Under the pieces are notes generated by a model. It was not told the origin of the DNA and did no database searches. It saw nothing but the letters and a program-made list of their open reading frames with translations. DNA of 64,000 nt from Microthyrium microscopicum (Eukaryota): contig MU004240.1 in NCBI GenBank assembly GCA_010405405.1, positions 1,622,814-1,686,813 on the forward strand. Direction: 5' to 3'. Both the position numbers and the translations under genes were made by a program. Positions 1-59,256 of the stretch are shown piece by piece. The stretch's first letter is position 1; every line of letters starts with the position of its first letter.

Positions 1-3000
1 TTATATCCTTTCTTAAATATTAATTATTCTCTTATAGCCTAATTTAAGATATAGTATATTATAACTATTATCTTTAGTAGCTTTAAAATAACTACTATCT
101 AGTAAACTTTATCTTTCTTTATTAGAATCTTAAGTAGTACTACTTTTAGTATAGCTTCTAAATAAGTTAAGATATAATATATAATAAGATCTATTATCTA
201 GATATACTTTAATAATTTAGTAAAGAAATCTCTTTAAGTATATAGCATATAGTAAAGCTTCTTTTACTACGTACTAATTATTAGCGTACTACTAATAAAG
301 CTTAAGCTTACCTTAATCTAGGTAGAGATCTAGGCTATAACTATATCTTTAAGTATACTTAATATTAAGTAACGAGAATCCTTAAGTTAGTAGTTAATAA
401 GAAATTCTAGTACTACTTATTTATATGCCTTATTATATATATATACTAATACTAGACTAGTAGAGAGAATTAGTTTTACTTTATTAACTCTTAATAAAGG
501 TTTATAAGATAGGTAAAGCTCCTTATACTAATAGCGCTTTTTTAATAGATTAAGCTACTTCTCTTTCTCTTAATATAAGATCTCTTTTAAAGTTATAGTT
601 TTATCTTTTACTACTATATTAATAAATCTAGACTTTTCTCTACTAATTACTTTATTAAGGTAATATTTCTATATTCCTTATAGCATATTACTAAAATATA
701 GAGGTTTTAGCTATTTAGTTTATTATTTTAATCCTATTCTTATTATATTCCTAGCTATAAGGTTTACTACTATATCTACTAGTAGCGCCTTTACCCTTTA
801 TAATTTAGTTATATTAACTATTAATTAATATTTATTTAGTAAAGGTTTTATTAAAAGTTTATTAAGTAATTAGTATAGTAAGATCTACTTTATTATAGTA
901 AGATCTTAAGAATTTATTCTCTCTAGTACGTAAGTTAATCTATAAATAAAAGAAGCTTCTTCTTAGCTAAGCTTTCCTTCTCCTTAAGAGTAAGTCCTAT
1001 TTAGTATAAAGTTAATTACGTATAAATCTTCTAAGTCTTAGGCAAAGTCTATTTCTAAAGCTACGTTTAAACTAATAAGCGTAGTTAAACTCTTAATTTC
1101 TTTCTTATAGTCCTTTCTTCCTTTAAGTATTTTATTAAAGTCTATAATAATAGCATAGGTTAATATAAGTAATAAGTTCTTACGTCCTAGAGCTAATTTA
1201 TTTTAATACTATTAGGAAATATATAAATTAAATAAGTTTAAATATATAAGAATAGCCTTCTAGGATTTATTCCCTTTTAATACTACTTAAGTTAATCTTT
1301 ATACTAGTATTATTCTATCTTTAAAGTTAATATCTAGTCTAAATTTAAAACTTACCTACTTTCTAAAATCCTATAAAAAATCTTATAAGATCTAAGTTAT
1401 TATTAAAGAAATAAGTATAGTCTAGCTTTCTAAATTAATATTCCCTTCTCTACCTAAGTTACGTTATAATAATAAGTTTTAAAGAGCCTTAATTATTAAA
1501 GATCTCAAAATCTTTATTCTTCCTTAATACTTTAAATAATATATACTTACTACCTATATATAGTCTTATACTAATTTTTTAAGTTCTTTAAAGAGAAACT
1601 ATCCTTTCTCTTATAAGTTCTTTAAGCTAAACTATATAGTTTAAGTAGCCTTAAGCATAAGATATTTTGTATTAAGGTTATTAATTAACCCTAACATTAT
1701 TAGTATAGTAGTATCTATTAGATCTTACTAATCTAATAAGCTTAAATTATTTCTACGATCTATAATAGAAATATTACTTTTATAGTTTTATAATATTTTT
1801 AATTACTCTACTAAATCTATAATAGAATTAAGCAAAGAAGCTTAAGTAATTAAATCCTTTTACTAAGTAGATTTTTCCTTAGCTTCTAAAAATAATACGT
1901 TTAAACTAATAGTAATAAAGAATTACTTATTTTATATATTTAACTCTTCTTCTACTAAAGAAAAGATTAGAATTTATAACTAATCTCCTATCCCTTTTTT
2001 TCCTAATTCTTTAGGTAATAAAAAAAGTATATTTAAACTATTAATAATAAGTTCTAAGTAATATCTATATAAAAATACTTATCTAATAGATAAATACTAT
2101 ATATTACTTAGTCCTAGTATAAAGAGTTCCTAATATACTAAATTCTATAAAAGATTAAATATACTTAAACTTATAAGTAACGCCTCTAATAGATTAATAT
2201 AGAGCTAATCTTCTAGTATATATATAAAGTCTTAATAAGGATTTTATAATAAATCTTTATCTAACTCCTCTATAAGTATATCTTTTTTAGCTACGTTTAA
2301 AGAAATAAGAGTACTCCTAAGCCTAAAATTAATACTACTAAATTCTACTTTATAAAAAGATTCTCTAGTAACTAACTATATATAGCCTTCCTTTACTAGT
2401 TATTTACCCTAATTATAAAAAATAACTATTAGCTAGTTAATACTTAAGCTTTTTAGAAGCTTTATAGTTAAATATATTATAATTAACTTTTCTTATTACC
2501 TTATACGTTATAACTTTCTTTCTTCTTATCTATCTAAGCATATTCTAAGCTATACTAAAGACTCCTCTTTAAATAATAACTTACCTACGTTTAAATATAT
2601 TTTCTTAACTAGGCTTATTCTATTTAATATACTTAAATATATAAATAATAAATATTATTATAATTAGGCTTCCTAGCTAAGTAAAAAGTCTAAAGAAATT
2701 TACACTAAATAACTAAAGATTCCTTACGTTACTAAATTATTAGGGCAGTAGGCTTAAGTTATTATAAAGAAGAGGAATAAGTATAAGTAGTAGTTATATA
2801 AATTTATTAAATATTCTTAGTATACTATTTCTAAATAAGACTTATAATTATATATTTCCTTATAGTTAATATTATTAAGGTTAATATAATCTTTAGAACT
2901 AGTCTTTTACTTAATTTTCTTTTCTCTTCTAAACTTAAGACTACTAACGCCTATATACTTTATAATTATACTATATATTATACCTATAGTAAAAGTATAT

Positions 3001-6000
3001 TTTATAAATAAAGTATATATATAAGGCTCTATATATTTAAATACGCTAATAGTCTTTAAAGTATCTACTAGTAAAGTACTTTTAAAGGCTATTAAATAAC
3101 CTTTATTAGTATATCTTAAGTTAACTCTAAAGCGCTAATTAATAATGTCTTTATAGCTTTATAATCCTCTTTACTTAAGTTTTAGATTAAGACTTATTAA
3201 CAAACTTTATCTATAACTCTTATTAATTTCTTATTATCTACTAAGTAAGTATAATATTTAGTATTTAAGGCTAAGCTAATCTATTAAACTACTAATAAAA
3301 ATTATAAAAAGACTTCCTTTACTAATTTATAAATTAGGAAGATAAGTTTATCTACCTAAGGAAGTAAATCTCTTAAGGCGACTTATATCTTAGGCTTCTC
3401 TCTCTTTATCTTATTATAATAATAAGAATCTAAAATAACTTAATAATTCTTCTTATTAACTACTATAAAAAGCCTATACTTACTCTACTTTAGTATACTT
3501 ATACTTTTAAACTAATAAAAACTTAAAAGAATGCTATAGCAAACTATTTCTAAAATAAGATAGTATTAAACGCTATAAATAGTACTACTAATATTAAGAA
3601 TAACCTTTACTCTTATATTTAGAATAAATTAAGAGCTACTAATAAAAGTAATATATATTAGCTTAAACTTTTACTTCTTAAGACCTATCTTCTTAGCTAT
3701 ATAAATATTAATAAAGTTTATAATAAAGCCTTTATCTAAAAAAACTTTATATAAAATATATTCTTTTCTAACTAGTATAGTAATATATACCTAAGTATAG
3801 AAAATATATCTTAATACGTTAGTATCTAAGACTAAATAACTATATAAAGTATTCTTAGTAATAGCCTTTATTAATTACTTATTAATATCTATAAAGTTTA
3901 CTCTATATACTATATTTAAAGTATCTATCTAATCTTTCTTTACTATTAATATACAATAATTAGTATTAGCTAAGGTTACTTATAGAAAAGTTAAGCTTTA
4001 AATATGTCCCTTAGTAGTAAGAATTACCTTTTTAAGCTAAGTATTATATACTACTATTTACTCCTTTATCTAAGCTTTATTTTCTTATTAAATCTTATCT
4101 TTATAAGACTAAGTTATAAGAGAGATTACCTTATCTTACTATAATATTATACCTAGCTATTAAATAAAGTAAGAAGAGCAATTTATAATATCTTCTACTA
4201 TAATGCTATCTTCTAGGCTAATAAGATGCCTAAGTAAAATCTTAGTAATATTTATAAGGCCCTTCCTCTTTATTCCTTTAAAAGGTTAAAATTTTAAAAT
4301 CTTAGTACCTTTAAAGAACTTAAAATTATTATCTATATCTAAGTCCTAATTATCTAGTTAAGCCTAGGTTTTATAAAGGCGTAGATTTTTATCTTTATTA
4401 TTATTAATATTATATTAAGTATGTTTAACTATATTAGCTAAAGTAGTATTTTTAAATTCTATACCTTCTAACTATAAAGTTAACTTACTAGCTTTATTCT
4501 TATCCTAACTTAGACTAAAAGTATCTATACTATTAACGTACCTACGCTAAGTAAGCTCTTCCTAATCTTTATTATTAGTATTATAAAATCTATTCCTAAT
4601 CTTAGGTCTCTAAATGCTAAGATAATAATCTCTAATAACCTTATTTACTTCCTACTATAATACTTATACTACTACTATTATTAAAAGATTTATAAAAGTA
4701 GAATAGTTTAAAGAAAGTTACTACTATTAGCTATTAGGTTATTCTTTCTAATAGTAAATTAGATAGTTATTCCTTTTTATACCTAGTACGCTATAACTAA
4801 AGTAAGTTAATAATTAGTATTTATTAGTACTATAAGAATTATAATAACTTAATTAGTTCTAATTATCTAAATAGTTATAAGTATTACTAAAAGGTCTTAA
4901 CTAGCTAACTCTCTATAGCGTAAGTAAAGCTAATATTAAAGAATTTAAATCTCCCTAATACTATTATTTATTATTAGCTAGCTATATAGAATAGCTTCTA
5001 AGTCTTTATTAAGAATAAATTAGTTAATACTATTACTAAAGCTATATATATTCCTACTAGCCTCTTATCTAGTTAGGCTAACTACTCTAGTTATATAAAA
5101 GCTAAGAATTATTTATTTAGGTATTCTAATTATTCTAAGGATAATTTTATCTTAGCTATAATTATAAAGCTAAAGTTAATATTATTACTACCTATCTTAA
5201 CAAGTTAGCTAAATCTTAAATCTATAAGTTAGTACGTAATTAGTCTTTAGCCTTAACTTTTTTAAGTAAGTAAGCCTTATTAAAGACGTAAATAACAAAC
5301 TCTATAGCTTTCTTAAAGGTAATATTATAATACTTTACTTAGTTAAAGCAATAATTAACTATAATTATTTCTCTATAGTTATAAATTATATTAAAATAAA
5401 TATTCTAATTATATAACTTCCTAACAATATAAAAGAAATTATAAAACTTATTAATATAATTATTAATAGATATAGCTTCTCTAACTATAGTCTTAGCCTT
5501 CTCTAAGGTATTAAAAATTAGCATTTAATTTCATCTATCTATCTTAATAGTTAAGATTTATATAAAATTATTATATATATAGCCTTAAGCAATATTACGT
5601 ACTTAGTTCTATTCTTAGATAAGTAAAGTAAAGTTAGTAACTATAAGGCCTCTAGTAACCTTATTTTCTAAGTCTTTAATCTCTTTATTAAAACCTTAAT
5701 TAAAACTATTACTATAAAGCAAGATTTTAGCTAATTAATAATAACTACTAACATAAGCCTAAATATCTTAATTATAAAAGCTATTAAATTTATTAATTAG
5801 GATAGATCTAGTAAATAAATAAATTAAAAAATCTAGATTACTATACTAGCTTATAATATAGGCGCTACCTTAATCTCTTATAATAAAAGAAGTAGTAAAA
5901 GATTATTTATTAAATTTACTATCTAAAATAAATAATATAAATAATTATTTCTTCTTCCTAAGAGAAGAAACTAAAGAAGATTTTTTAAAGAATACTAGTA

Positions 6001-7510
6001 CTTTAACTTTAGTTAGTAGGCTAAAGTTCTACTTAAGGTAGTATAAAGTATACTATTAGTATTATTTATAAAAAGTTCTAAGAAAGCAAGTAGCCTTAAT
6101 TACTATAATACTAAAAAATAGAAACTTAAGTATATCTAATAAAATAGATATATAAAAGCCTTAGATTTCTATTAGTAATAATAATAAAATTTATAAAGGC
6201 CTTCTAAGTATAGTTACTAAGAGATTAACGTTTAATAAAGCTAATAATACTCTCTCTTAAATAAGAGTACTAGGTTAGAAGGGTAATAAATCTTATTAAT
6301 AGTTTTTAAACTATAGTTAATAACTTTAATCTAGGCTAAATAACTCTTCCTCTCTATTTATTCCTATATTACTTAGAATAATAAGCTAGCTATAGTAATA
6401 ATAAGAAGTAAGAAGTTTCTTAAGGCTAACTTTAAAAAGTAAAGTAGTATAATATTAAATTAAATTAATAAGTATAAAATAATATATATAAAAGTATAAT
6501 AGATAAAAGTAATAAAGATTAAGAGAAGAAAAAGTCCTTAAGGCCCCCTAATCTTAGCCTAGTAGTTATAGAGTAAAAGTATAAGCTAGTAAATAATCTA
6601 ATCTAAAGAAGTCTTATTTATAAGATGCTTCTAATAAAGAAGTTATAATAGTAGGCCTAAATTATAAAATAATAGCTTAGTAGTTAAACTTATATAAATT
6701 TAAAAATCTTGCCTACTAGCAATCTAATTATAGTATTATCTATAAGTTTAATAGTAACTTTATTCTAGCTAGAAAGTTAACTATAATATTAAAAATTATA
6801 CTACTTACTATAAATAACTAGTATATAGCTATATATCTTTATAGTATATAAGAACTATTATTTTGTATAGTAAGAACTACTCTAAAAGTATATAGTTAAA
6901 CTAATAGTAATAAGGGTACTAATATTTAGCTAGCTTAGTTGCTTTTTACTTTCTTATTATATTTTAATAGTTACTATATTCCTTATAGATAATTACTATC
7001 TATTAATTTAAATTTAATACTTTAAATACGCTTAATAGTTTAATAATACTTATAGCTATTTATTATTTTATATTAGCTACTATAAGCGTACTAGATTATT
7101 TAGATTTACTTTCTATTAGCTTATAGCTAGTATTTATTCTATATTAATTTATTATCTTTTAGATTACTTATTCGTTATTAGAGCTTATTATTTATTATCT
7201 AATTATATTACTTAATTATATAAGGTTTAGAAGGTCTATAGTTTAGCCCCTAATTTAATTATATATAAACCTCTAAACAAGCTAGCGCTTCTACTATATA
7301 TTTAAATATACGTTATAAAATCTAGAGGACAAGAAAATATAAATTAAATATAGAAGACGTACTCAATTTAGCTATATAATATATATCTTAATAATTAAAG
7401 TAAGTTAAGATCTTACCTATTCCTATGCCTTTAGACGTAGTCCGCGCCATTAGGTCTATGCAGTGCTAAGGACCATAGGTTAGTAATCTAGCTATCAGCG
7501 AGAGGTTACA
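1..7510 (-). mobile_element. RIP-inactivated Gypsy/Ty3-like LTR retrotransposon, truncated by the left window edge
   Basis: Very AT-rich, with CpA/TpG almost absent and TpA abundant (RIP signature), and no ORFs in the track. Minus-strand remnants read by hand, in order: a Gln/Asn-rich gag-like frame; a Zn-knuckle-like TYFSYSVLGIKRNNYL (de-RIP about TCFGCGVPGxKRNNCP) at ~4760-4805; a retropepsin-like VFLDKGFIINFINIYIAKKIGL at ~3680-3750; and an RT N-terminus-like segment (de-RIP WRDFF..TDLI.HHI...SNWA....KKG) at ~1-250. The element begins TGTAAC on the minus strand at 7510. Confidence 0.75.
7081..7510 (-). repeat. Putative 5' LTR (~430 bp)
   Basis: Starts TGTAAC (plus-strand gttaca at 7505-7510). 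A candidate RIPed other end reads GCTTATA (from GCTTACA) at 7081. RIP fades over the last ~80 bp. The partner LTR is outside the window, so the inner boundary is tentative. Confidence 0.4.
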
Positions 7511-8459
7511 CCCAGGGTTGCCAACGCTAAGCCTATCTAGGACGTCCCCAGAAGAGTCTCATATGCACATGCCTATTTGGGGTCACGGTGGATAACCTTA
7601 AAGAGCTCTCCATGGTCGTCTTGCTCAAGCCATCATGAAGCTTGGACGACTTCGTGCCAACTACTGCTCTGGGTTGCGTGGCGTGGGCATTGAGCAGGTC
7701 ACTACTTTTCTCTATCCTTTATCGAATCATGTTTAAAAGTGTTGATATGGTAGCGAGTATCAAACTCACAGAACCGCCACAAACCCTTTCAATTTGCCTC
7801 CATATACAGCCTATAGTCATCACTTACTGGCATCGTCTCTTCCAGTTTTGCTTGCTTTTACAGGTATCCTTCGACGAGCCTCCATAGTATCTTTTTCTGG
7901 AACATCCTGCCCACGATATGAATTGCGGGAGTGGCCGGTCGAGTTGCGGAGCTGCCCTATAGGGAACAAAACATACCTGTCGCATTCAGCTGAGTGACAA
8001 TAAGATAGATTAGAATACCAACTACCTGACACCATCTTCCGGATGGTGCCTATCAGAACACATTAGCATGAAAGCATGGTGATGGACAACAAAGCCAATG
8101 GCTGAAACGAAGACGGCTGATCTGCCCCGGCCATCAAAGCTATCTTGAAGGCATTGTATCCAGTTTGGGAAATTTCAAAAGCCATGTTGAGAGAACAGTA
8201 CCAGGATGCTGAAATTACCCTGGCGATCTCGTGAGGCTCAAGACGAGAACCATGATATTGCTCTTTCACTGGATCGAAACGGCAGGGTTATTCATAGTGT
8301 TCAAGTGTGCTTCTGCAGGAGGTAGGCTTGTATTACTATGAGTATGGCGGATATTATCTGTAATCCCCTAAGGTATTATGCCTCAGTAAAAAATGTACAG
8401 TGAGGTGAGTTCAAACGCTAAGACAATGCTCCAACGCCGACCGTAATGATTAATCATGT

Positions 8460-9726
8460 TCATGAAGTCTTTAGGACTTTAGGTTGCTTCGTCAATAGTT
8501 CTGTGCCAAAGACGCGATCCCAGAATGGGCTGGTTACACCAAAGCCATTTTGATAATCGGCAAAATGATGGGCGAGATGGTACTTCTTCAGTTCCCGATA
8601 ATATGCAGGCAGACTTAGTGATCAATGTTAGCAGCTGTCAATAGTTCGAACTAGGATATGCTTACTTTCGGTGATGGAGGAAGTAGTGGGTTAGATCGTA
8701 GCAGACGTAACCGAAAATACCACCACAGAAAACAGCCACAGCTGCATACCAGTTGTATGAGAAAACGGCATGTGCAAGATACCAGAATGGTGTAGCGAGA
8801 ATAACGAATAACGTCGGTGGCATGACTAGACGGTATTTATCCATTGGCAAGTAATGATGGATACCATGCATCAGGAAATGTAACGTAATTCCCACTCGAT
8901 TGTCAGGGAGATAGCTACTACGGTCAGTTTTCCATTCTCATACATGCACTTGGCTAACTTACTCATCAAGGTGAAACAAGAATCTATGCAAGCCATATTC
9001 AACAAGAGTCCAAAGACCCAAGCCAAGAATCCAATAAGAAGCCACCTCCGTCTTGGAAGAGAGTCCTTGTGAAGCGATATATGTGCCGTATGCTATGCAA
9101 GGAAGCCAGACCATAGGTATAATGTACCAAGCGGTTTTGCTCAAAGGCTCTAAAAAGTTTCCGAATAGAGGTGCCGAATCGCCACCCTTGTAGTGCCTTG
9201 GTCGATGAACTTGCTCGAGGTAAAATTCCCTTGAGAAACCACCATTCCAGACTTGCATTAAAAGTGGTTTGTTCAGGTCCAAAAACTTATGAGTTTTGTA
9301 ATCCTGACTGGGGTCGGTTTCCTTTGAAAGATCTTCCGCACAAGATAATCCAGTCGCTTGGTAGACAGTCCTGCCTTCAGCATCTGAGAGCTCCTTCGCC
9401 CCATTAGCGGAAGGAGGTAGAGGGACTATGCCATCAGGATGATCGCTATTTGTGGCAGCGTTTATCACCGATTCGGTGACTAGATATCCGATCAAGTTGT
9501 CTTCTAATATCTCGTAGGCGACCTCAGTGTGTTCATGGGAAATTTCGTCGGCCATGATCGCGGATACATCGGTGCCAGCATGATCAAGTATAAGATCACC
9601 ACCGCCCGGGTGGTCATCGATGAAATCCGTGACATCGTAGACCTTCTTCCCTATAGTTACGTAGCATGATTTGGCGGTAGTATGCGACTGGACGTCGGCC
9701 ACTGATATATTTGGAAGAGACGCCAT
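8460..9726 (-). CDS. SCS7: Sphingolipid (ceramide) fatty-acid alpha-hydroxylase, cytochrome b5 fusion; 3 exons
   Basis: Cyt b5 HPGG motif; hydroxylase His boxes EYGLHRFLFH, HGIHHYLP, THYFLHH and KKYHLAHHF; GT-AG introns near 8915-8961 and 8615-8665. Confidence 0.95.
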
Positions 9727-10576
9727 AGTGTTGATTGTGTGAGCGGAAGCGGGCGGGAGGAGCATTGGGGAAGGTAGGATGTGCGAGGGACCAGAAACTG
9801 GTACTAGATAGGAGAGACAATATACAAAAGTCAGAAAGGGAGAAATGAAGAATAGTTAAGTGTAGAGTCAACCGTTGTGTCTCGTGCTCACCATGAGTTT
9901 GGCCACTGTGGATCGAGAAGCTCCTGACGATTAATTCTACGGATCGCGTTTTGGGGAAAGCGCGTTCGGTTCCGCGATTAGATGGAGTCTGATAAGATCA
10001 AGTCAATTACAAGTGCAAGATTCTGAACTGCAATGATTGGCTATCAGTCAACACTGCCAAGAAACTACCGACTTCATCAGGCTGACTTGCACTCAGCCTT
10101 CCTGTTCGGATGCGGCTGTATTATCTGGGACTTCAATGTCTTGCTATCCAAAGTCAATGCAAATCAGTACTCAAGATTGCGCTTCTAGACTTGAGCATTC
10201 GAGGCAATAATATGGAGGATAACTTGAGGCTTTGAACAATGGCTCCGAACGTTTTTGGAGCAACTCCAAAAGAAAAGCAAAAACATGCCGCAACTAGCGC
10301 GGATGCCAATAAAGTACAGTGCGCATGCATATATTCTACGCCCTGCCTGCCCCTGACAGTTGCTCCCGGCGGCTAGAAGCTTAAGGTTGGCTCCTGAATA
10401 GAAAGCTAGAACTTCCCCGGGTTCCAGGATGGTATTTGCTGAGTTTCCTCAGGAAGCTCATCAATACGGCACTTTCAAGCAGCATTACCCCTTCCAAGGT
10501 CTATTGTCTCCCTCGTTACTGGAGGTCGAATCCTCTCCCTGATTGTTGAATCCTGTGCTCGCACACGAGTACAGTG

Positions 10577-12893
10577 ATGAAGCCGCGATGGTTGCAACGC
10601 TTTTCTAGAAGCGCTTCGAGAGCAAACACAGAAATCCCAGCTTCTACAAACAGTGTTTCAACACCTTCCACTAGCATATCAGCGCCTCCTACGAGTATTT
10701 CGACTCCTGCTACCTTACCAACCGAAACATTCTACCCCTCTGGCATCAAGCTACTCTACGGCGCAGAAAATGCGATAATCGAGTGAGTTTCTACACTCTT
10801 CCGTTCACAAGCGTCTTCTCATTTGAGTGGTAATGGTAATCAACATATGTCAATTTGCTGATTTCTGGGATTTTTGTACACAGCATTCTATTCATTCACG
10901 GCCTCACCGGAGATCGCGAGAAGTCATGGACGACGCAAGGGAGCGTAGCTACATTGTGGCCTCAGTCTTTGCTACCGGCCAGAATCCCAAATGCTCGAGT
11001 TCTCACTTTCGGCTATGATGCGCATGTGGCAGATTGGCGAGGGATGGTGTCGAAGAATAGGATTGGAAACCATGCAATGAACCTTCTTACCACCCTTGCA
11101 ACGTACAGAGAGGACGATGACAGCGTACGATTCAGGTAATAATGTAGTTTTCGTGAAGGAAAGACTGACTATCGCAGGATCAACGACCAATAATATTTGT
11201 CTGCCATAGTTTAGGTGGTCTCGTATGCGAAGATGTAAGTTTCCGCGAAAGTTTTGCCAGAAAATCACGTCAATAACAATACTAGGCTCTTCTGTTGGCC
11301 AGGCAGCGACCAGAGCAGCATCTTCAAAGAATCCTCGAATGCACTCGTGGCATTGTCTTCTTTGGCACCCCACATCATGGCTCAGGTCTTGCAAACTGGG
11401 CAGATAAGTTGGCTGTTGCGATTGGTCTTCTTAAGCAAACCAACCCAGAAATCCTAGCAGTACTCAAAAGCGATTCTGAGGTTCTTGCTCGCATCCAAGA
11501 GGGCTTTCATGCTATGATGAGGCAACTCAATCAGACGGGCCGCATACCGATTGATATCACTTGTTTTTATGAAGAGCTACCATTACCAGGCATTGGTGTC
11601 GTAAGTTGAGAACATACTCTTCTCCCCATCCTCTGGGTCACTAACTCTTGCTTTTCAGGTGGTTCCTTCTCATTCGGCTGTTTTGCCTGGCTACACGCCT
11701 ATTGGCATACGGCGAAATCATATGGATATGATTAGATTCGGAAGTATGGACGATCCAGGCTTCACCGCTGTAGCTGGCGAGCTTCGTCGCTGGGTGAAGA
11801 GACTTGATTTATCTACCACTGCTCGGCAACCTGAGCCTCCATTGATCGAGGTGCCAATGAACAATAGTGCTGAAAGGACGGATAGTCCGCCACATCAAAC
11901 ATTACCGGGCAGCGTTCCATCTACAAGCAGTACGCCAGCTGTGCCGCCAACTCCTGATCCTACTTTTAGAGGCGGTCAAAGCCCAATAGCCGCGGGAGGT
12001 GACGTCAAAATCGGCAACTCTGAGCAGAACCTGTCTGGTAACTTTTATGGCAGTGTTCAAATATCCCAGTATGCAAAGCCTCTCAAAATTATCTGAAAAG
12101 TAATGCTGACTTTAGGACTTGCAGATCACATCCATTCGCTGCGCACTTACCACAAGCAAATATGGGCCCGAATGAACGTCAATTGTTAAAAATAGCCGGT
12201 AAAGGAGATGTTGTTGAGGGTCTCAGGCTCATAGAGACCAAGGCCAATATAGATTCAATCAATGAGGAAGGCCAATCTGCTCTGACAATGGCTATCAGAG
12301 GGCAGCACATGGAATTTGTTCAACTCCTCCTAGACCGCGGAGCCACGACAGAGCGTAGCGGATTCCTCGTACATAAGCCACTACACGTCGCAGTTAGGAG
12401 CCGGAACGTAAAGATATCGGAACTTCTACTCAACCACGGCGCAGATATCGATGAAACCACAGCCCGCGGTACCGTCCTTGGTATCGCAAGCAGTCAGGGC
12501 GATGAGCCCATGATGGACTTGCTTCTTAACAGGCACGCGGATCCTGACATGGAGCCGCCCCTCTCGCCAATGTATAGCGCTATCATCGCTAGGAAAGAGT
12601 CTGTTATCCGGAAGTTACTAAAGTACGGGGCTGGAGCACACGACTTGCAGAAAGCGGCTGTCATGACCATCCGGAGGTTGACGCCGGCCTGTCAAAACCT
12701 CCTACGAGCCTGGGCGTTGCAACACTATGAACAATACGTTAAGACGCTGCGAAAAGTATCTTCGGACGGGGAGCAGAAAAAAGCTGCACTTGTCTCGGCA
12801 TTGAGGTGTGCAAATCAACATGGCCACAAAGAAGTCGAATCTCTTTTCTTGGAAATAGCAAGGGACGTAGGGATATCCGTTGGTCAAGAGTAA
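10577..12893 (+). CDS. SesB-like alpha/beta hydrolase + Pro-rich linker + G/N/Q amyloid-like motif + ankyrin repeats (NLR-related, no NACHT); about 6 exons
   Basis: Spliced exons give DILFIHGLTG, ARVLTFGYDA, RPIIFVCHSLGGLV (nucleophile elbow), GIVFFGTPHHGS, CFYEELP and NHMDM. The intron gtatgc(12069)...gctgac...ag (12115 or 12124) joins in frame to the ankyrin ORF 12162-12893 (GQSALTMA, KPLHVAV, LLLNHGADID). Confidence 0.8.
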
Positions 12894-13240
12894 TGTTTGA
12901 TGAGTGAGGCCGGGAGATCAAAACAATATGGTCGCAAATCAGCTAATATTTCTGACTTTGGCTCTTAATCTGGACCTTTTTTAGTCCATATTCTTTCTTT
13001 GAGCAATGTTTCATGCTTTTTTCACGCGTAAGGTACCTGAAATTTCCAGAATGTATACTTCTCCTCGTCAGGAAGTCATTAGGTAAGAGATATCTTGGTT
13101 CAAGAAGACAAGCTCTCTGGCACTAGTTGTGCCCCTCCTCTCATATCCGGCAATATCAGTAGCATTGTAAAGATACTCTATCATCTGCTTTGGCTACCAA
13201 ATGCTTTGCGGTATTTCCAAAGTAACTATTCTTTGCCAAG

Positions 13241-14022
13241 ATGTCATTGAACGAAACTACGTCCTCAAATCTGCGTGTTCGCGAAGCCACTCTCGATGAT
13301 GTTGACGGCTGGGTAACCGCGATGCTCGCAGGCTATGAAATCGACCATCAATTCGTTTACAGATATCCGTTCCGCAAACAATATCCCGAGGATGCGCGTA
13401 GCGCGTCCGCTGCTGTGTTTAAAAACTTCATTGCGAACCCAAACACCGTACCTCTTGTCGCAGAAGCACCCATCGAGAGACCGGATGGCTCGTCGACCGG
13501 AAAGTGGACAATAGCCGCCATAGCTTGTTGGGAATGGAGAAGCATTGATGATGTAGAAAATGAAGCTCGTGGGTCCAAGTCTAATAACAAAGTCTCCACA
13601 ACCATTAACGAGTTAATATAGATCCGTCTAGTTTTTCTGCCCCAGGCACGACACGCCGTGATATGGATCCACAAAGACAAAAGGTTTTCATCGATGCTAT
13701 AGTTGCATCAGAGAAACGTCACTTTGGTCCCGAATGGGGGAGATCACGCATAGAGCTTCAGGATTTGGCTTGTGATCCCAGATTCTCACGGAGAGGAGCC
13801 GGTACTGCTCTGACACGATGGGGACTACGGAAGGCCCAAGATCAAGGCCTGCCAGTTATGCTCACAGCTAGTCCACTAGGGAGACTGATATACAAGAAAC
13901 TGGGCTTCCAGGATTTGGAGTATGTAGAATGTGGGATTGAAGGCGAGGAAGAGAAGGTTGGCACATGGGTTATGGTCTGGACACCTCAAGGGTGGGAAAA
14001 GCCTGAACAGCATGCACAATGA
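13241..14022 (+). CDS. GNAT acetyltransferase; 2 exons
   Basis: The intron gtgggt...atatag (~13569-13621) joins two track ORFs; motif A LACDPRFSRRGAGTALTRWG and the C-terminal LTASPLGRLIYKKLGF are present. Confidence 0.9.
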
Positions 14023-17200: not shown

Positions 17201-18253
17201 TTATATATGTCCAACTCCGGCTTTGGCACTGAGAAGTTCACAAATTGTCGCTGCTGGATCAGTACTAGAAGTGTAATCAGTACAGAGTTCAACCGCAGTG
17301 CAATTCAAATACTGACGTGTACTTGTACGGAATGGATAGAGCTGCGGGTTTTGTTATACGCGCCTCGCCGTTCTCGAATATGTTATTTTTTGATGTGGCA
17401 AGCCCTTCCACTTTGGACGAAAGATTGGTAACGATGGGAAGAGTAACGTTCCGGAAATGACTCTCCTCAACCAGAACTTGAGCCCCCATTCGGGCGTTGA
17501 TGCCAGATGTTGGCGTGTTCTCGAAGCAGCTACTGAACATGTGGCCTGTGCCGAATCTAATGGACGGCAGACGAGAATTGACGTTATTCCAGTGATTGTG
17601 GTGAAATGTGACATGTAATTTGCCAGTGTCTTCTTCGCTGTTCTTATCGGAGTGTCCAACCAATGATCCCTTCCAGTGGTCGGAGAATTTCGACCAAGAC
17701 ACGGTGACTTGGTCACATCCATGCGTAATGTCGAGGAGGCCATCGTAATAGTCTTTGTTAACAGCTTTACCCTTGCTCTTAAATTCACAATGATCGATCC
17801 AAACTTTGGTTGCCCTGTCGAGTGAAAGAGCATCTCCTTTTTCTGTTGGTGTATCGAACTTTATATTACGTATGATGACATTCGACACCCGTTTGATGAT
17901 GAGACCACCATCTTTCAGTCCTGCATGTTCATTAGCAATTCTCGCAGCGCGTATGTTTTCTGGGAAAGGCATCTACCGGAGTTTGCGCCTACTCCTTGGA
18001 TCGTGGTACTACCGCCAACTTTGATGACACCACAACCGGGCAACACTCCTTGGATCTTGATGACATTTCCGCCCTTACCAGCGGCAGCGCTCAGTGCAGA
18101 ACAAGAGGTGACTGTGATACCTCCACCATTGCCGCCGCCGGTAGTGCTAGCGCCATAACCGATAGGTCCTTCTGATACAGCTCCGCGCTGAGGAATTGGA
18201 TCGGCAACTACCAAGGAGATAATCAGTATTGCGACGAGTGTGGATAAAAACAT
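17201..18253 (-). CDS. Secreted pectate lyase, polysaccharide lyase family 1; 3 exons
   Basis: Signal peptide MFLSTLVAILIISLVVA; TTGGGNG, NVIIRNIKF, VWIDH, YYDGLLDI, DHWKGSLVGHSD and RLPSIRFG (RxPxxR) motifs. Confidence 0.95.
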
Positions 18254-23713: not shown

Positions 23714-25260
23714 TTTGAAGAATTGGAATGAAAGAGGTTGGAAACTACAAGTCAAAATGATATGAGAGACAAGACACGCTATAAAGCATACAAACTCAAT
23801 GCGAGTTACAGCCCCCGATAAAATAAGCACCAAAAGGCCAAAACATTCCCGGTGCTAGAGATAACAACGATATTTATACATAAGGTGCTACATTATCACC
23901 TCAGACGGCCGACGCACGGCGATCCGTACCAGTCAAAATTCAAGTGTCCCATGTCGTACGAGGGAGGACCCATGCAGCTGCTGACTTGAGAAGTGGTGCC
24001 GGTCGATGGGCTGTGCATGCCAAAACGTTTAAAGAAACTAACACACGGCATGGGATCCAGCACTATGGGTCAGCCTTTTGGTAGAGTTTAAACATTGATT
24101 CTAAACAATGGCCGACATGGTGGGTTGTTTCATCGGCGCTCCTAGGGGTCAATCGATGTTGGATCGTCCAGAGAACTCGATTTGATAGACTGCGGCTGGC
24201 TGACTCGCGGCATGGTACCCCAACTTCTTGAGCTCGTGCAGTCTTTCTAACAGATTTGTCGAGGCCTGCATTGCTGAGGTTGTTGTGTCCTAGTCAGGCC
24301 TCATCTTGTGATGCTCTTGTAGAATGCAGGGACATTTTTCATTGCCATCAAAATCAAAGTTCGATTAGTCGGGTTGGTAGACATGGAAACCTTTGCTGTG
24401 TCACAGCCATATCATGTGGCTAAGCCTTCCAACAAATGGATATTTCTGTATCAAGATTAGAATTGTGGATTGCGCGGCCATCATTACGAGTTGATTCAAA
24501 ACCGCTGTTTTTAAGCTTTGAATGTGTCTCCTATGTTTTGTGTTAGCGGCTTGTGCCTTTTGCGCTACTTGGCAAAGAAACACAAGATATGCAAGAGAGG
24601 ATGAAATAGAAAGGCCGCGCATGGGAATGCGTTAAAAAAGTGGATTCTTCAAATGCTTACAGTTATTTTGGTTGTCTCTCCGACAATCGATTTGAGTGGT
24701 GACACGAAACCCACAATCAATGCGGCAAAGCGGGATGATCTGAAAACTAGAATTTTCGTGCTGCGCATTCAGTATTGGGGACTGCGAAAGTCAGGATTCA
24801 GGAAGGATGCATGAGAGCCAAGTCCCCACGATCTGACAGGCTGAGGACGGCATCTGCAGGTGTCAGTGTCAAATGAAAAGTATATATTCTCATGCATCAT
24901 GTCTGCACCAACTCAAGAGCAAATATAGCAAGGGCTATTGGCTAAGGTCACCAACAGAGAAACTAAGTCGACCCTATCATCATAAATGGCGTTAAAGGTC
25001 AAAGTCAGGGTAAAAGTATGTGGTTCTTTGGAAATGGATTGAGCTTTGAAGTTAGTCAGGCCAGGCTGCTGGGAAACGGAATACAAACTCTGACGCACTG
25101 GACTGCCGTGGAATTGAATTGTTCATAGTACCAGGCCAGCATCACACGCAAATGCCAATACGAAAACATGTTCCAACAAGCGCTGTCTATATTAAGTGTA
25201 TGGAAGTCTGATGCTTATGATACAATGGATAATCACGGCCTGCTGGGTGTCCACGAACAA

Positions 25261-26792
25261 TTAGGCGTAGAAGTTGGCTAATCATAGTTAGTGAATGTTG
25301 GAAAAGTTGGAATATTCGTGACGTACCTGTCTCCTTCTTCTTGGCTTGTACCTCCGCTATAGCATCAACGTAATGTTCGTGGCTAATCTTGGTCTGGCCC
25401 AAACGCAAGGCGATCATACCAGCTTCAACACAGACAGCCTTCAGCTGAGCCCCACCAAACTCATCCGTACTTCTTGCCAATTCCTGCCAGTTGACGCCTT
25501 CGTCAACGGTCATCTTCCGACTATGAATTCGCATGATCTGAGCTCTAGCCTCCTCATTGGGAAGTGGAAACTCAATCTTCCGATCTAGACGACCAGATCG
25601 AAGAAGTGCAGGATCGAGTACGTCGACACGATTTGTGGCTGCGAGCACTTTGACGCGATCATCAGAGGCGAAACCATCCAATTGGTTTAGGAGTTCCAAC
25701 ATGGTTCGTTGTACTTCACGATCACCAGATTTATCGGAATCGAAACGTTTTGTGCCCACTGCATCCAACTCGTCAATGAAGATGATTGAAGGCGCCTTTT
25801 CTTTGGCGAGGGCGAAGCAATCGCGGACTAGTTTAGCACCGTCTCCAATGAACATTTGCACAAGTTGTGGTCCAGCAAGCTTGAGAAATGTTGCGTCTGT
25901 TTGAGCGGCGCAAGCTCTTGCGAGCAGAGTCTTTCCAGTTCCGGGAGGTCCATACATGAGAGCACCTATATTCATCAGCATGTTTTTATACCTGCCAGCA
26001 CTTGACAAAGCTTACCTTTGGGAGCTTTGATGCCAATCTTCTTGAATCGTTCAGCTTCCTTCATTGGCCATACAATTGCCTCAACGAGCTCTTCGATTTG
26101 CTTGTCTAGACCACCAACATCTGTGTACTTTTCTGTAGGTTTCTCGTCAACCTCCATGGCCTTTACTCTGCTGTCGTATTCTGCGGGGAGGGTATCAAGT
26201 ATAAGATAGGAATCCTTGTTCACACCGATAAGATCGCCGGGCTTGAGCTTCTCGTGGTCAACAAGTCCAATAAGCGGAAGAAAGATAGTCTGGCGGGTAG
26301 AGGTTTTGATGACAGCGGATTTGCCAATGCGTGTGGCATCGAGATCGATATTGGCACCTTCTTCGGCGGCTTCTTCGTCTACGTCAAGGTCGAGGATTTC
26401 GACAACGTTGCCGACGAGGTAAGGAAGCTGTCTGTGTTTTGTGAGCAATAATCCAGGCTACAGAAGGTGGGGGCATACCGGTTGTTTTCAATCTTATCCA
26501 TGTTGTCCTTGATCTTCTCATTCATTGTCGACTTTTCATGGCTAAGTCGCTGGAACTCGCTCTTCATTATTCTCAGCTCATTCTCCAGTAACCTACGCCG
26601 CGCTACGATGTCTCGTGTGCTGAGGGTCAGAATCTCGTCATCCAGAATTTCCTCTTCCTTTTCTTCGGGTGCATCTTTCATTTCATCATCACCACCTACT
26701 CCTTCTTTCTTTTCGCCATCGTCTTTCTTGTCGTCTTTCTTCTCCTCGCGTTGTTCTTGCTCAATATCATCGAGGTCTTCAAGGGTGGACAT
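25261..26792 (-). CDS. RPT5: 26S proteasome AAA-ATPase subunit 6A; 4 exons
   Basis: [27 protein letters not shown] and [22 protein letters not shown]; the last micro-exon encodes the C-terminal HbYX motif ..NFYA*. Confidence 0.97.
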
Positions 26793-31865: not shown

Positions 31866-32369
31866 CCGTTTGCTTGAGCAATTTGTGAAATAATACAATT
31901 TGATATGAGATTCATACAAACAACAGACAAAGGGTCATGTTTGGAGAAAACGTCCAGTGAAGCTTCCTTCTTTCTCATGAAATGCGGGGTCGATGTTTAC
32001 GAGCTTCAATCATTACACCCATAATCGAAAAGTGATGGTCGGCGACCCTCCCCCATGTATGTTGTGCTTTACATAATTCCACCAATCACACGTAAAATAG
32101 CCTGTGGCTTTGGGTGGTAGAAAATTAGGCTATTTCGTGCTATCTTATGAAGCGTTCTAAATATTAAAGTGGTATTCTATAATTAGTGTGCCAGAATTAG
32201 TGTTTTAGCTACTGTTTGAAAGCTCTTGATCTGAATATGTCCATTTGGACATCTCTTGACATTCTCTTACCTGTTTTGTATGCAAATCAATTGTTCTTAT
32301 CCCGTACTCTTATTATGGACCCTATTTAGTTAGAAATAGCTTAAATTGAAGTGGGATTAATCCTATCTC

Positions 32370-33400
32370 GACATAGACGCCATATTACGAACTATAGATA
32401 ATAAGCTATTATTAGAATACTTTAAATAAGCGAACCTATCTCTAGAATTGCTAAATCCATTAGTATTAGTAAATCTACTATACGTCTCTATTGCGCTCAT
32501 CTTAATTAAGTAACTGGCAAGTATATTAAGCGCCCTTATTATACCTTTAGTTACATTTTAGAGATATCTAACTCTATACGTAATTTTATACTAGAAATAC
32601 TAGTATAGAAGGGGACTCTCTACCTAGACGAAATGTCGTTATTACTATAGTAAGAGCTTAATGTAAGCTATGGTAACTAAGTAATTTAAAGAGAACTATA
32701 ACGCGTAAACTAGACGAAGAAGTAAGTACGTTAACTATATTACCTTATAATTCCTATACTAATCTAGCTTCTTCTAGGTTAAAGAGATTACTTAATAACG
32801 CTATAGCCTTTAACGAGACGTATATTTTGAACGTATAAGTATCTATACTTCTAAATAGCTAGTTTTTATAGATAAGAATAGTAGTAGTAAACTAAATACT
32901 TGCCATTAAATAGGATAAAGCCTATAGAGTATTATTATAGAGTCGTTTAAGCGATTAAATTACTTTAAAAGGAAGAACTTGCTGCTAGCTTATACTAGTA
33001 ATAGCCTTCTTACTAAGCTAATTTATAAGGTAAATATGAATTAAGATGGCTTTAAATAGTTCTTAAAGTATACTCTTCTACCTATTTATAGTGTTTACTC
33101 TACTTTGCATAGTGTTATTATTATAAATAACGCTTCTTTTTATTATAATAGACGAATTTAAGAGATTTACGACTTATAAAAAGTTAGATTAGAATATTTA
33201 CTACTATATTCCCTAGATCTTAATCTAATTAAAGCCTTTTTTAGTAATCTAAAGTCCTAACTAAAGTAGTATCGTCTTAACTTTAATAGAGGTTAAACCT
33301 ATAAAGAAAGGTTTTAACTTTTTATTAATATTTTTAAAGAAGAAGTTTATATGCTAGGAGAGGATAAATAGCGCGTAAAAGTATATTTTAGATATATTAA
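32370..33400 (+). pseudogene. RIPed DD34E transposase
   Basis: HTH-like EPISRIAKSISISKSTIR; LYLDEM; LVFID at 32859-32873; SVIIINNASF (de-RIP SVIIMDNASF, D at 33126); YLLLYSLDLNLIK (de-RIP YLPPYSPDLNPIE, E at 33231), giving 34 residues between D and E. Probable intron gtacgt...ctaat...tag at ~32726-32778. Confidence 0.9.
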
Positions 33401-33609
33401 ATAGCTATACTAAATACTTATATTTTTTTTAGAATTAAATTCCGTTATTTTATTATAGTAATCTTATAGTAATAAAGTTAAGTTTTGATAGTAGTTTTCT
33501 AGATTAGCTACTTTGTAGAATCTTAAGTTATATTTTGTTAGATTAAGATTATTTAGATAAGATAATATCCTATTTAGGTTTAGTGCTTACCTATCTAGGT
33601 TTAGCCTAT

Positions 33610-35370
33610 GTATAATCTTAAATTATAAGAGTAAGATTTACTTACACCTTATAATATTATCTCTTTAGACTTTAATTATTAACTATTTTAAACGCTATTT
33701 ATTATAAAAATAACTTAAAAGAACTAAATTATATCTTAAGGAAACCCGCAATATGTCTATCTATTAAAGAAGAGTATTCTTCTTATATTTAAACCTTATG
33801 CTACTACTCTTTAATAGTATCTTGTATTTTAATTAAAATAAATTTATTTATTATTAAATCCTAAGTATAAAACTAAATAATCTCTCTTTCTTAAAGATAA
33901 ATAGGGCATATAAAATGAATATATATAACAAAAATTACCTTTTTAATCGTAACTTTAAAAGGGTTAGTTCCTTAAACTTTACTACTAGTAAGCTTCTTTA
34001 CGATTTAAGGCTTAAATCTACTTAGCTCGTTAAAGATATTAGTATTAAGGTAGATCTTTAGATATAGGTAATTAATTATATCTATTATTAAAGTTAAAGT
34101 AGTATTAGATACCTCTATATAGTTATAAATTATAACTCTAGCTTTAGAACTAATAGAATTAATAGGTCCTAGTTAATAAACTTATTATTGTTAAATAATA
34201 TTATAAATAGCTATAAAGGAATGCGCGATATTAATATTTAGAGTTTAGCTAGCCTATTCTAAAGCCTAAAGAATAAGTAATTCCTTATCTATAAAGTAGT
34301 AGTAATGCGTATTATTAGTCTAGTAAGCCTTCTTTTTGTAATAAGGATAAGTATCGTATTTATAAGCGTACTTTATTATTAATTATTTGTATTTATTAAG
34401 CGCGTTATTATCTAGCTAATTATCTTCGTTAGTAGTGTTTTAGGAGGCATTTTGATTGCTAAGTAGGTTATTTTGGCTCGCTTTAATATTCTGATCCTAT
34501 AGTTCTCGCATTATTGTAGATACTAAAGTTCTAATAACGTTATTAGTTCTAATAGTAGTACTAGAAGCTTTAAAGGAAAGGATTAATATAAATATTAGCT
34601 TCTAATTCTAATAAGAAGTAAATTAGGAGTTAATCTTATTATTAAGAGGCCTGAATTAATTAAGTTCTTCTTCGTCGTCTTGTTATAGAGAGTATTTAAG
34701 TAAAGGGTAAGTAAATTCTAGTATAATCTTCCTTAAAATTGTTAACGTTAAAGAATATAGGATTAGGTCTAAAAAGATAGTATATATATACTATAGACGT
34801 CTCTTAATGGCAAAATGCTAATCTTAAAGGCGTATAATCTTCTTATAGGCTAAAAGGATAGTATTAAGGTTGTGAAAGAAGATGTAATTAAATTTACTCT
34901 TTAAGATAATGCCCTTTTCTTAATACTTTATAAAATATTTAACGATAATATTAAAGTCTTTAGGAATCTTAACTTTATCGTTTGCAGCGTTTTTAGCCTC
35001 TAATTAGTCTAATTCTATCTTATTAGATTTTATAGATTATAGTAGTAGGGACGTAGGTATTTAAGATTATAGAGGATTAATTTAAAGGCTTAAAGAACTT
35101 GACGGTAAGGGTAGAATATAATTATAGTTTAAGGGTGCTAACGTTACTAGTGTAGAAGATATAAAAGAGCTAATAGTAGTATTTGCTTTGGCTTTAGCTA
35201 AAGGCTTTTGAACGCGTCTACTAGCACGTTTTTAGAGGGCAGAATAAATAGAAGATTTAGCTTTATAACCTATATTAAGCGACGGTAAGGTTGAATTATA
35301 ATTAAATTTAATAAAGGAACGAGAAAGTTAAAGTAATAATAAAGTAGTAAGAATACGTACTTTACCATTA
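33610..35370 (-). pseudogene. RIPed second ORF of the transposon (~560 codons), function unknown
   Basis: One minus-strand frame reads as protein apart from TAA/TAG codons that RIP can explain: Ser/Pro-rich N-terminus, QDDEEEL, and a de-RIP Cys/His/Trp motif (C....C......CW.....H......L..WA) at ~34250-34375. Confidence 0.55.
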
Positions 35371-36338
35371 AGATAAATCATATATTTAGTATATTTAGCT
35401 TTAGTAAGAGCTGATATAACTTAGAAACAGCTGAGATAACTTAGAATAAGCATAGTAGAAGAGTAGATATTAATTATTTAGTAGACTAGAAGAAGCTAAC
35501 TATTATGGTTATTATAACATAACATAAATACCAAGATCTAGCATACTAACGCCTAAAACTAGCACTAAAAGATCTAGCGCCAAAAATAACCAGAGTTCTA
35601 TAGATTCTAGTTCTATAGGCTATTTTACGTGTGATTGGTGGAATCTGTGAAAATCTAGCAATTACTACATACAAGGGGGTGTCTGAGCGACCATCACTTT
35701 TCGATTATGGGTGTAATGCCCAGACCTTTTGACAGCTGCCAATCTGTGACAAAGATATTCTAGAAGCGATCGCCCAAAGCGCTTGTAACTCGTCTTCTTC
35801 CGCGGGATAATCAACTGTGGATCTTTTCTCTACCTCTCAGCTGATGTCCTCTCATGCAGTAGAGGCACCCAACGCCGCAAAGATTGATCCCAGAACCTCT
35901 TGAGCAAGTGAAAAAACAAGCAAGAATGCTAGACCAATCCTGTCCTTACGTACATCCCCTGTGGGGGATTGCGGACGTTTCAGTCAAGCAAGCAGGTCAT
36001 ATCTGCACCCCGCCAGCCAGGCTTTGACAGAGACGTCCTAGGGAAATATACTGGCCCCGGCGGCCCGTCGATCCTGGAGCAAGATTTCTTACGACGCCAA
36101 AGTTGCTCATGGGCTAGATGGAGGGCCTTACGCGGCTATAGCCGGGGCAATAGACCTCATCATTGGATCTTGGGAGGAGAATCCCAGGCCGTAACCGGCG
36201 AGCTGCAGACTCTAGGTGGGATAGTGGCCGAAGCTAGGGATATCGGATAGGCAGTTGGAAGCATTGGTCCAACAGAATGAGGGGCAAGTGTGGACGGGGG
36301 AGCGTTTGGAGTGGAGTGTTTGGAGGGAAAAGTAGTGG

Positions 36339-58630: not shown

Positions 58631-59256
58631 AGCGATCAGGGGAGAGAGCTATGTTTTCTTTATTAAATTCTTTTTGTTTATAAAAATTCTACTCAGGTAG
58701 GATTAGGATTGCCATATGGTATATTATATCATGTACATTAGCTAGTTTGATACCCCTCTCTCATATATGAATTGTAATGATAGTGTCTGGGACAAGGCAG
58801 GATTTGGTCTGCTTGGTGTCCAAAGTCAACTCCGATGTTTTCCTGAGCCATTGCAGATCGTGAGAACCCTTGGAGATTTTGTGGGTTATTCTAGACAATG
58901 GATCGTAAGAACACATCTTTGGCATCGAAGCTTTTGGTCGAATAATAATGACTGCTTACCCAGCTCAGAGCCGTTACTCCATCAACTCCATCGACTCCAT
59001 CCTGAACATCCTTGACGAGGAATTCTAGAGTAACAAGCTGAAATGGGCTTCAAAACTGACGATTCGGCTCTTTTAACCTTCTCATATGAGATCTCACACG
59101 CGCTCAACATTCTGATGCACATGCTCTTAATATTCAGAGAGCTCAGTGGAAGTAAATAAACATGGCGATGCTCTCTGCAGAAGAGGTCCAAGCTTCTTTG
59201 GTGTTTTCATTCGACGTCACTATCCTCCACGTCTTGACTCTTCCAACACATCGCCA

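Follow-up and report, generated by a model that had tools for sequence, protein, structure and literature searches.

The window analysed here, 64,000 nucleotides of a contig of Microthyrium microscopicum (Dothideomycetes, Microthyriales), carries at 10577-12893 on the + strand a gene whose product joins a SesB-like hydrolase head to a disordered linker, a short G/N-rich segment and an ankyrin (ANK) repeat tail, with no nucleotide-binding oligomerization domain (NOD) of the kind found in NOD-like receptors (NLRs). Scripted joining of the exons (Table 1) gave 1998 nt, comprising a frame of 665 codons followed by TAA, and contained no internal stops; exon 5 runs from 11659 to 12068 and exon 6 from 12125 to 12893. 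One 2467-nt contig of the public run X1, aligned to 10400-13100, covers the locus from 10433 to past 13100 without a mismatch and skips exactly five GT..AG intervals (101, 53, 51, 58, and 56 nt); because all five introns are removed precisely, the contig represents spliced RNA. At the joint across 12069-12124, which connects the motif exon to the ankyrin exon, 255 nt of the contig lie on the shorter side. The hydrolase, linker, segment, and ankyrin repeats are encoded by one spliced, in-frame mRNA. Run X1 is the sole public run covering the stretch; its RNA type is only guessed, and it is perhaps the genome project's own. An earlier, sequence-only reading of this DNA had listed CHSLGG, GTPHHGS, a Pro-rich linker, a G/N/Q/S segment, and ankyrin repeats, the last joined in frame by a normal intron. 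Every one of these elements was recovered where that reading had placed it, the intron in question is skipped in the contig, and the hydrolase and ankyrin parts, which it allowed might prove to be separate transcripts, lie in one spliced RNA.

The joint at intron 5 is independently supported by P0002, a protein of Scytalidium lignicola that is continuous through the same joint and aligns end to end with the 665-residue product. In P0150, the hydrolase end, linker, and ankyrin tail lie in a single uninterrupted open reading frame (ORF), and ORF fragments of relatives stop or start at the position of intron 5. Exon 5 is 99% identical to P0001, a 425-residue public protein of M. microscopicum; this model agrees with the transcript through the end of the motif, then enters intron 5 and ends 15 residues further on, with the ankyrin repeats missing. 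Searches with the tail among proteins of 399-1271 and of 140-447 residues matched no M. microscopicum protein, so the full-length product appears to be absent from the collections searched. The public gene model is corrected here, and surveys built on such models would miss the architecture.

Two other structures for this region were rejected. A separate ankyrin gene starting at the internal Met at 12163 is contradicted by conservation of the peptide upstream of that Met and by the observed splice joint, and an in-frame alternative acceptor, TAG at 12113-12115 (9 nt 5' of the CAG in use and adding three residues), is passed over by the contig, which uses 12125. Read-through of intron 5 would meet a TGA at 12094-12096, nine codons past the motif, and would give a 418-residue hydrolase with a near-terminal motif, the classical effector layout; the public Leptodontidium model P0003 (443 residues) also terminates just past the motif. 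No contig retaining intron 5 was seen in X1, which is a weak point, as contigs lose rare forms.

Table 1. Features of the gene and annotated neighbours, in positions of the window
Feature	Position	Strand	Basis or remark
5' untranslated part	10433..10576	+	contig piece begins at 10433; first ATG of the frame at 10577
Exon 1, S/T/P-rich N-terminus and hydrolase start (FYPSGIKLL)	10577..10782	+	aligns with N-termini of P0002, P0003, P0009
Intron 1, 101 nt, GT..AG	10783..10883	+	absent from transcript contig
Exon 2, hydrolase (FIHGLTGDREKSW, FGYDA)	10884..11124	+	tblastn 57-77% identity to NLR heads and P0002 head
Intron 2, 53 nt, GT..AG	11125..11177	+	absent from transcript contig
Exon 3, nucleophile elbow CHSLGG, Ser160 at 11208-11210	11178..11234	+	kept in relatives whose models cover the exon
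Intron 3, 51 nt, GT..AG	11235..11285	+	absent from transcript contig
Exon 4, hydrolase core, GTPHHGS at 11364-11384	11286..11600	+	73% identity to NB-ARC/TPR protein P0004
Intron 4, 58 nt, GT..AG	11601..11658	+	absent from transcript contig
Exon 5, first part, hydrolase C-terminal end (VVPSHSAVLPGY, NHMDM, GELRRWVK)	11659..11805	+	71-80% identity to NLR heads P0004, P0006, P0013, P0018
Exon 5, middle, P/S/T-rich linker, about residues 323-385	11806..11994	+	predicted disordered
Exon 5, end, conserved G/N-rich (G/N/S/Q) segment GGDVKIGNSEQNLSGNFYGSVQIS, residues 386-409	11995..12066	+	alignment, profile search
Intron 5, 56 nt, phase 2, GT..AG, motif exon to ankyrin exon	12069..12124	+	absent from transcript contig
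Exon 6, start, conserved junction peptide SHPFAAHLPQANMG, 5' of first ankyrin helix	12125..12167	+	kept in P0002, P0020, P0141, P0142
Exon 6, five ankyrin repeats	12168..12629	+	Pfam, orthologue model; boundaries approximate, transferred from P0002 by alignment
Exon 6, helical C-terminal cap, about five helices, family-specific	12630..12890	+	P0002 model, 13 tail sequences; boundaries approximate
Stop codon TAA	12891..12893	+	frame reading
3' untranslated part	12894..13100	+	contig continues about 117 nt past 13100 (contig position 2350 of 2467 = 13100)
Cytochrome-b5-domain protein	8959-9855	-	flanking gene
GNAT acetyltransferase	13226-14022	+	flanking gene
Pectate lyase	17289-17972	-	window neighbour, not immune-type
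Proteasomal AAA ATPase	25187-26457	-	window neighbour, not immune-type
ABC transporter	54432-58700	+	window neighbour, not immune-type

The head shows both marks of an alpha/beta-hydrolase, a profile match and a GxSxG-type elbow. P0001 passed the cut-off of Pfam Abhydrolase_6 (27.8 bits against 26.3), and DUF676 and PGAP1 remained below theirs; single hydrolase exons are too short for Pfam matches, and the scans were done on the public model and on orthologues. CHSLGG corresponds to residues 158-163, with the nucleophile elbow CHSLG at 158-162, and GTPHHGS to residues 195-201; aligned relatives retain Ser160 and the His within NHMDM. A protein search with exon 5 returned 19 proteins, several of which are NLRs, and Pfam rescans of four relatives found NB-ARC with TPR in P0004, P0006, and P0008 and NPHP3_N/NACHT with ANK in P0005. 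When seven NLR proteins (P0004, P0005, P0006, P0008, P0013, P0018, and P0019) were aligned to the window by tblastn, identity was 57-80% across the head exons. By these comparisons, the head is placed in the sesB-like clade of Dyrka et al., which normally stands at fungal NLR N-termini, and it is an N-terminal effector of a recognised NLR class; the name SesB-like derives from relatives, among them P0012, which is entitled 'sesB-related regulatory protein', and not from the Dyrka sesB profile. A sequence search of the PDB with P0001 gave BlEst2 as its sole match, a weak one (E 0.33) around GTPHHGS.

Among the relatives of the head are stand-alone hydrolases of 319-361 residues from Aspergillus and Monosporascus (P0007, P0012, and P0014-P0017) that have G/N/Q/Y-rich ends soon after the domain; these ends resemble terminal signalling motifs of another kind, and no Pfam amyloid family matched the six proteins at E<=1 (E<=10 for P0007). 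In P0010, an assembled contig, the C-terminal half of the hydrolase shares a frame with a PNP_UDP_1 phosphorylase domain (2.4e-11), giving two NLR-type heads in one ORF.

No trace of a central NOD was found in the 665-residue protein. It contains no Walker A pattern ([GA]xxxxGK[ST]), Pfam scans of the exon translations, P0001, and P0002 with E values admitted up to 10 gave no match to NACHT or NB-ARC, and neither Pfam nor the Walker A pattern picked out a NOD remnant in the linker. The pattern scan and Pfam thus agree with the sequence-only reading, which had seen neither a Walker A nor a NACHT remnant between the head and the ankyrin repeats. The protein therefore presents the N-terminal effector and the C-terminal repeats (ANK, TPR, or WD) of an NLR, and it has no central NOD with a P-loop. 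That reading had also allowed that all orthologues might retain NACHT and that the copy here might be a deletion confined to this strain. The orthologues P0002, P0020, and P0150 also have no NACHT or NOD, and the NOD-less architecture is conserved and not a strain-specific deletion.

The sequence-only reading had proposed that proteins combining SesB and ANK without NACHT be looked for in other fungi, and such proteins were found. P0002 (726 residues) has the same full-length architecture and aligns from end to end. A search with the motif and tail of P0002 gave 516 matches at E<=0.001 among 7728 candidates; within the best 120 of the 516, P0020 of Lindgomyces ingoldianus (Pleosporales) was the sole close relative besides P0002, and the rest were generic ankyrin proteins with 22-40% identity. 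The tail of P0020, comprising linker, motif, junction, ankyrin repeats, and cap, is 56% identical to that of P0002 over 382 columns, and its head is PF17111 (residues 1-152; 33.2 bits, cut-off 27.2), with no hydrolase. PF17111 is equated with the HeLo-like family (PMC9815663). Thus, the same tail is used with two unrelated executioner heads, and the tail is indifferent to the kind of head that it carries.

When shorter proteins were searched with exon 6, 13 more tail sequences of 42-56% identity emerged (11 of the 13 were inspected individually), nearly all of them metagenomic and resembling exon-level ORFs. Fragments beyond the full-length members therefore number 13 tails and two pieces of head and motif, mostly from metagenomes, and the named species of the family fall in Dothideomycetes and Leotiomycetes. 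Although Lindgomyces and Microthyrium are both Dothideomycetes, their tails are about 51% identical, whereas the Lindgomyces tail reaches 56-62% with its counterpart in Scytalidium, a Leotiomycete; this pattern hints at old paralogy or transfer.

The ankyrin character of the tail was evident from exon 6, in which Ank_2 (2e-18), Ank (1.9e-17), and in all five ANK families exceeded their Pfam cut-offs. In the AlphaFold2 (AF2) model of P0002, the tail forms five ankyrin helix pairs followed by five cap helices (635-709) at a predicted local distance difference test (pLDDT) score of about 90, and Foldseek of this tail returned DARPins and ankyrins as top matches, with template modelling (TM) scores up to 0.91 by target. 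The cap is kept across the 13 tail sequences, the junction peptide, which precedes the internal Met, is conserved in P0002, P0020, P0141, and P0142, and the mean pairwise identity of the tail is 54% (78 pairs). A predicted complex of three tail copies (P0002 425-726) scored 0.00, which is no verdict and counts neither way.

Conservation between the head and the tail is uneven. Among six sequences (15 pairs), mean pairwise identity was 65% in the segment, 33% in the linker, and 80% at the hydrolase end; because the segment is roughly twice as conserved as the linker, it is under constraint. Fourteen of its columns are invariant across four sequences. In the AF2 model of P0002, the linker has pLDDT 23-38, and motif and linker are disordered at pLDDT 23-30. 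A profile of the segment (34 positions), searched against 1,835,955,588 representative proteins in a library that holds one representative per 50% cluster, gave two matches at E<=0.001, P0139 and P0140, both of which are fragments of the same family that comprise hydrolase end, linker, and motif and end at the exon border. No NLR with the segment was found in this search, a weak absence, as the library missed P0002 and P0020. The segment is internal in all three full-length members, but it is not universal: P0150 has the tail without it, and the more distant P0009 has head and ankyrin repeats without it.

The sequence-only reading had called the segment 'amyloid-like', and this label was not borne out by comparison with the motif families in print. 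The HET-s-related amyloid motif (HRAM) is a 21-residue unit with G at 19, hydrophobic residues at 5, 8, 10, 16, and 18, and a preference for R/K at 15 (Daskalov et al. 2015, PMC4518210). The segment is like it in a V/I-x-I-G-N stretch, G-rich arcs, and alternating hydrophobics; however, in the best register it has three of the five core hydrophobic positions and D or N, not R/K, at 15 in all six sequences, and PF11558, the HRAM family, matched neither the exon translations nor the public model and orthologues. The pseudo-palindromic PP core (NxGxQxGxN / GxQxG) and the PUASM pattern FxGxGxQxxGxGxF, both as defined in PMC9815663, are absent from all six sequences, and no PF17046 match was found. 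The sigma family (Pfam NACHT_sigma, PF17106) gave no match at E up to 10 in P0001, P0002, P0003, or the 42-residue motif stretch. A PDB sequence search with the motif profile gave no matches at E<=10, solved HET-s-type chains included, and the ESM Atlas, queried with the motif stretch of P0002, gave no usable feature match, its structure rows being unrelated (TM <0.36). There is thus no HRAM, PP, or PUASM pattern, no Pfam amyloid family, no HET-s-type chain, and no NLR carrier among the results to sustain the name, and P0150 lacks the segment altogether. The segment is conserved and may be a candidate amyloid-type switch, its amyloid behaviour being unproven; it may instead be a receiver for a distant NLR or merely a conserved neck of the tail.

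Taken together, these data firmly establish that an NLR-type head and an ankyrin tail are fused in an expressed and conserved gene that has no NOD. We favour, at a probability of roughly 0.45, the interpretation that the gene encodes a NOD-less two-module executioner of the regulated-cell-death or defence type with a head-independent control tail. A disordered linker would tether the putative serine esterase/lipase head to a control tail made up of the G/N-rich segment, the junction peptide, five ankyrin repeats, and the helical cap. The activating signal would arrive through a conserved partner on the ankyrin surface, through self-association of the segment, or through both, and the heads would be gathered at a membrane-lipid target, with induced proximity acting as in NLRs and amyloid-signalling effectors. 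Because the tail is indifferent to the kind of head, docking of the tail on a particular head is unlikely, and recruitment or clustering is the more likely mode of action. Because the tail is conserved and not hypervariable, an upstream component of the fungus itself is a more likely partner than a foreign ligand that varies. The sequence-only reading had proposed an immune or cell-death module in which either the ankyrin repeats gate the head or an amyloid-activated effector carries an ankyrin regulator. The link to immunity and cell death is strengthened by the presence of the tail on a HeLo-like head, whereas the data do not choose between gating by the ankyrin repeats and an amyloid-activated effector with an ankyrin brake.

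Several observations weigh against this interpretation. The family is small, with three full-length members and otherwise fragments, and the RNA support consists of one assembled contig from one run, which is silent on expression level and isoforms. In many fungal NLR sensors the repeats are hypervariable, whereas the tail here is conserved and consists of repeats that differ from one another. A position that is D/E in 10 of the 19 aligned relatives, and that may or may not be the site of the catalytic acid, is H in this protein (VVPSHSA, 11668-11682); the same H occurs in P0002, P0003, and several bona fide NLR heads, and one relative has N. The head of the P0002 model has pLDDT <50 (AF2, 14 aligned rows), too poor for triad geometry. 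Finally, no NLR was found within the 64-kb window by Pfam scans of ORFs or by tblastn. The Pfam scan covered 39 of the 57 stop-to-stop ORFs of at least 130 residues, the other 18 being overlapping antisense or alternative frames and frames within the gene, and its only STAND-like line was a sub-threshold nSTAND3 match (22.1 against 27.2) inside the proteasomal AAA ATPase. The seven NLR proteins used in tblastn matched nothing outside 10583-12887, where they gave the head exons and one weak ankyrin match only.

The SesB-like/NACHT or NB-ARC/ANK or TPR NLRs (Dyrka et al. 2014, PMC4986451) share with the gene the head clade, C-terminal repeats, and exchangeable heads; in true NLRs, HeLo-like and SesB-like heads are known to replace one another on NODs that are nearly identical (PMC4986451, Table 2). 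The gene differs from them in having no NOD, and its tail is short, conserved between species, and not closely related to the repeats of any NLR. Stand-alone SesB/SBP effectors, which have a C-terminal sigma or PP motif and answer to an NLR encoded next to them (Daskalov 2012; Loquet & Saupe 2017, PMC5485727), likewise consist of a lipase head, a disordered stretch, and a short, conserved G/N-rich segment; however, in the gene described here the segment is internal and is followed by ankyrin repeats, neither the PP core nor PF17046 or PF17106 is present, and no NLR was found that is adjacent or that carries the segment. In both of the dual-effector amyloid systems known, one motif is common to a HeLo-like-type effector and a lipase effector, HELLP with SBP for PP and SESA with SESB for sigma (PMC5485727), and the present family resembles them in placing one common segment on both kinds of effector. 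Wojciechowski et al. (2022, PMC9815663, section 23) describe NLR N-termini in which a HeLo-like domain is accompanied by an internal sigma or PP motif, with the same order of head, motif, and remainder; those proteins continue into a NOD, whereas the gene continues directly into ankyrin repeats. From these comparisons of sequence, what appears to be new is the placement of ankyrin repeats directly after head and motif. No NOD-less SesB-ANK or HeLo-like-ANK protein is described in the portions consulted of the main texts of PMC9815663, PMC4986451, PMC12258605, PMC12881547, PMC12261475, PMC5485727, and PMC4518210, the supplements of which could list such proteins, and literature phrases for NOD-less fungal NLR-like proteins gave no match.

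In known systems, fungal death effectors are switched by a NOD in the same protein or by an amyloid motif that is templated by a separate NLR. Here, two NLR-type head classes are wired to a repeat tail without a NOD, which, if functional, would be a third route of control for the same executioners; the architecture suggests an undescribed control of fungal death effectors. The system is small (665 residues, two modules, and a candidate switch of 24-34 residues) and is tractable for studies of induced-proximity activation of SesB-type lipases.

The position of the segment, between head and repeats where an NLR has its NOD, permits another reading, namely a self-contained minimal receptor in which the ankyrin repeats sense a ligand and free the segment, a new beta-arch or amyloid-type oligomeriser, to stack and to activate the heads by proximity. 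The segment has the general look of an amyloid-signalling motif, being short and G/N-rich with alternating hydrophobics, a disordered flank, and a disordered monomer; it is conserved across two head types, and the order of head and motif is in print for the HeLo-like NLR N-termini with an internal sigma or PP motif (PMC9815663). We regard this receptor as unlikely, however, as the segment matches none of the defined motif families (PF11558, PF17046, and PF17106), the proteins P0150 and P0009 indicate that the segment is dispensable for the fusion, and the tail is not diversified in the manner of a sensor. Similarly doubtful is the proposal that the gene encodes a NOD-less receptor of the innate-immune type in which a self-stacking G/N-rich segment replaces the NOD as oligomerisation switch between a small ankyrin sensor and interchangeable executioner heads, either a lipase or a HeLo-like pore-former, and from which intron 5 retention could release a form with the head and a terminal motif.

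Alternatively, the protein could be a classical amyloid-signalling effector whose segment is templated in trans by a distant NLR with a matching N-terminal motif, the ankyrin repeats serving as a brake or localiser. That HeLo-like and lipase effectors have a common motif is the pattern of the PP and sigma systems, the stand-alone relatives of the head end in G/N/Q/Y-rich tails, intron 5 retention would bring the segment to the classical terminal position, and a published proposal allows signalling between genes that are not neighbours (PMC9815663, section 27). Set against this, the two matches of the segment profile both belong to the same family and neither is an NLR, the window holds no NLR, the segment is internal in every full-length member, and, as a weak point, the intron-retaining contig was not seen. 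We consider this trans-templated effector improbable.

Lipases are combined with ankyrin repeats outside immunity as well, as in iPLA2-beta, which like the present gene unites a lipid esterase and protein-interaction repeats but differs from it in lipase fold (patatin) and domain order; neither iPLA2-beta nor SERAC1 is known to offer a counterpart of the HeLo-like head swap or of the G/N-rich segment. An ordinary lipid-metabolic esterase that the ankyrin repeats merely localise or regulate, with no role in immunity or death, would be in keeping with a tail that is conserved and not diversifying and with housekeeping-type neighbours (the cytochrome-b5-domain protein, GNAT acetyltransferase, and proteasome ATPase). 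Furthermore, the sesB-type domain is related in fold to human SERAC1, a phospholipid esterase (PMC4986451). A metabolic role would not, however, lead one to expect that L. ingoldianus carries this tail behind a HeLo-like head, the nearest relatives of the head are NLR heads at 57-80% identity, and the distribution is patchy, with few species in two classes, which together make a purely metabolic role a poor prospect. Lastly, a functionless, decaying remnant of a SesB-NACHT-ANK NLR after loss of the NOD, although that architecture is common in fungi (PMC4986451) and an AT-rich block poor in ORFs is about 2.5 kb away from the gene, is largely refuted and very improbable, because the 665-codon frame is intact over five introns, transcribed, and correctly spliced, NOD-less orthologues occur in other orders and another class, the linker has no NOD remnant, and the 22-40% identity of the tail to the best 120 of the 516 matches other than P0002 and P0020 argues against a recent copy of NLR repeats.

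Elsewhere in the window, AT-rich blocks occupy 1-8000 (GC 20-29%) and 32000-36000 (27-31%), against 43-50% in the remainder, and contain no stop-to-stop ORF of at least 130 residues. These blocks resemble repeat islands degraded by repeat-induced point mutation (RIP), and the gene begins about 2.5 kb from the first of them.

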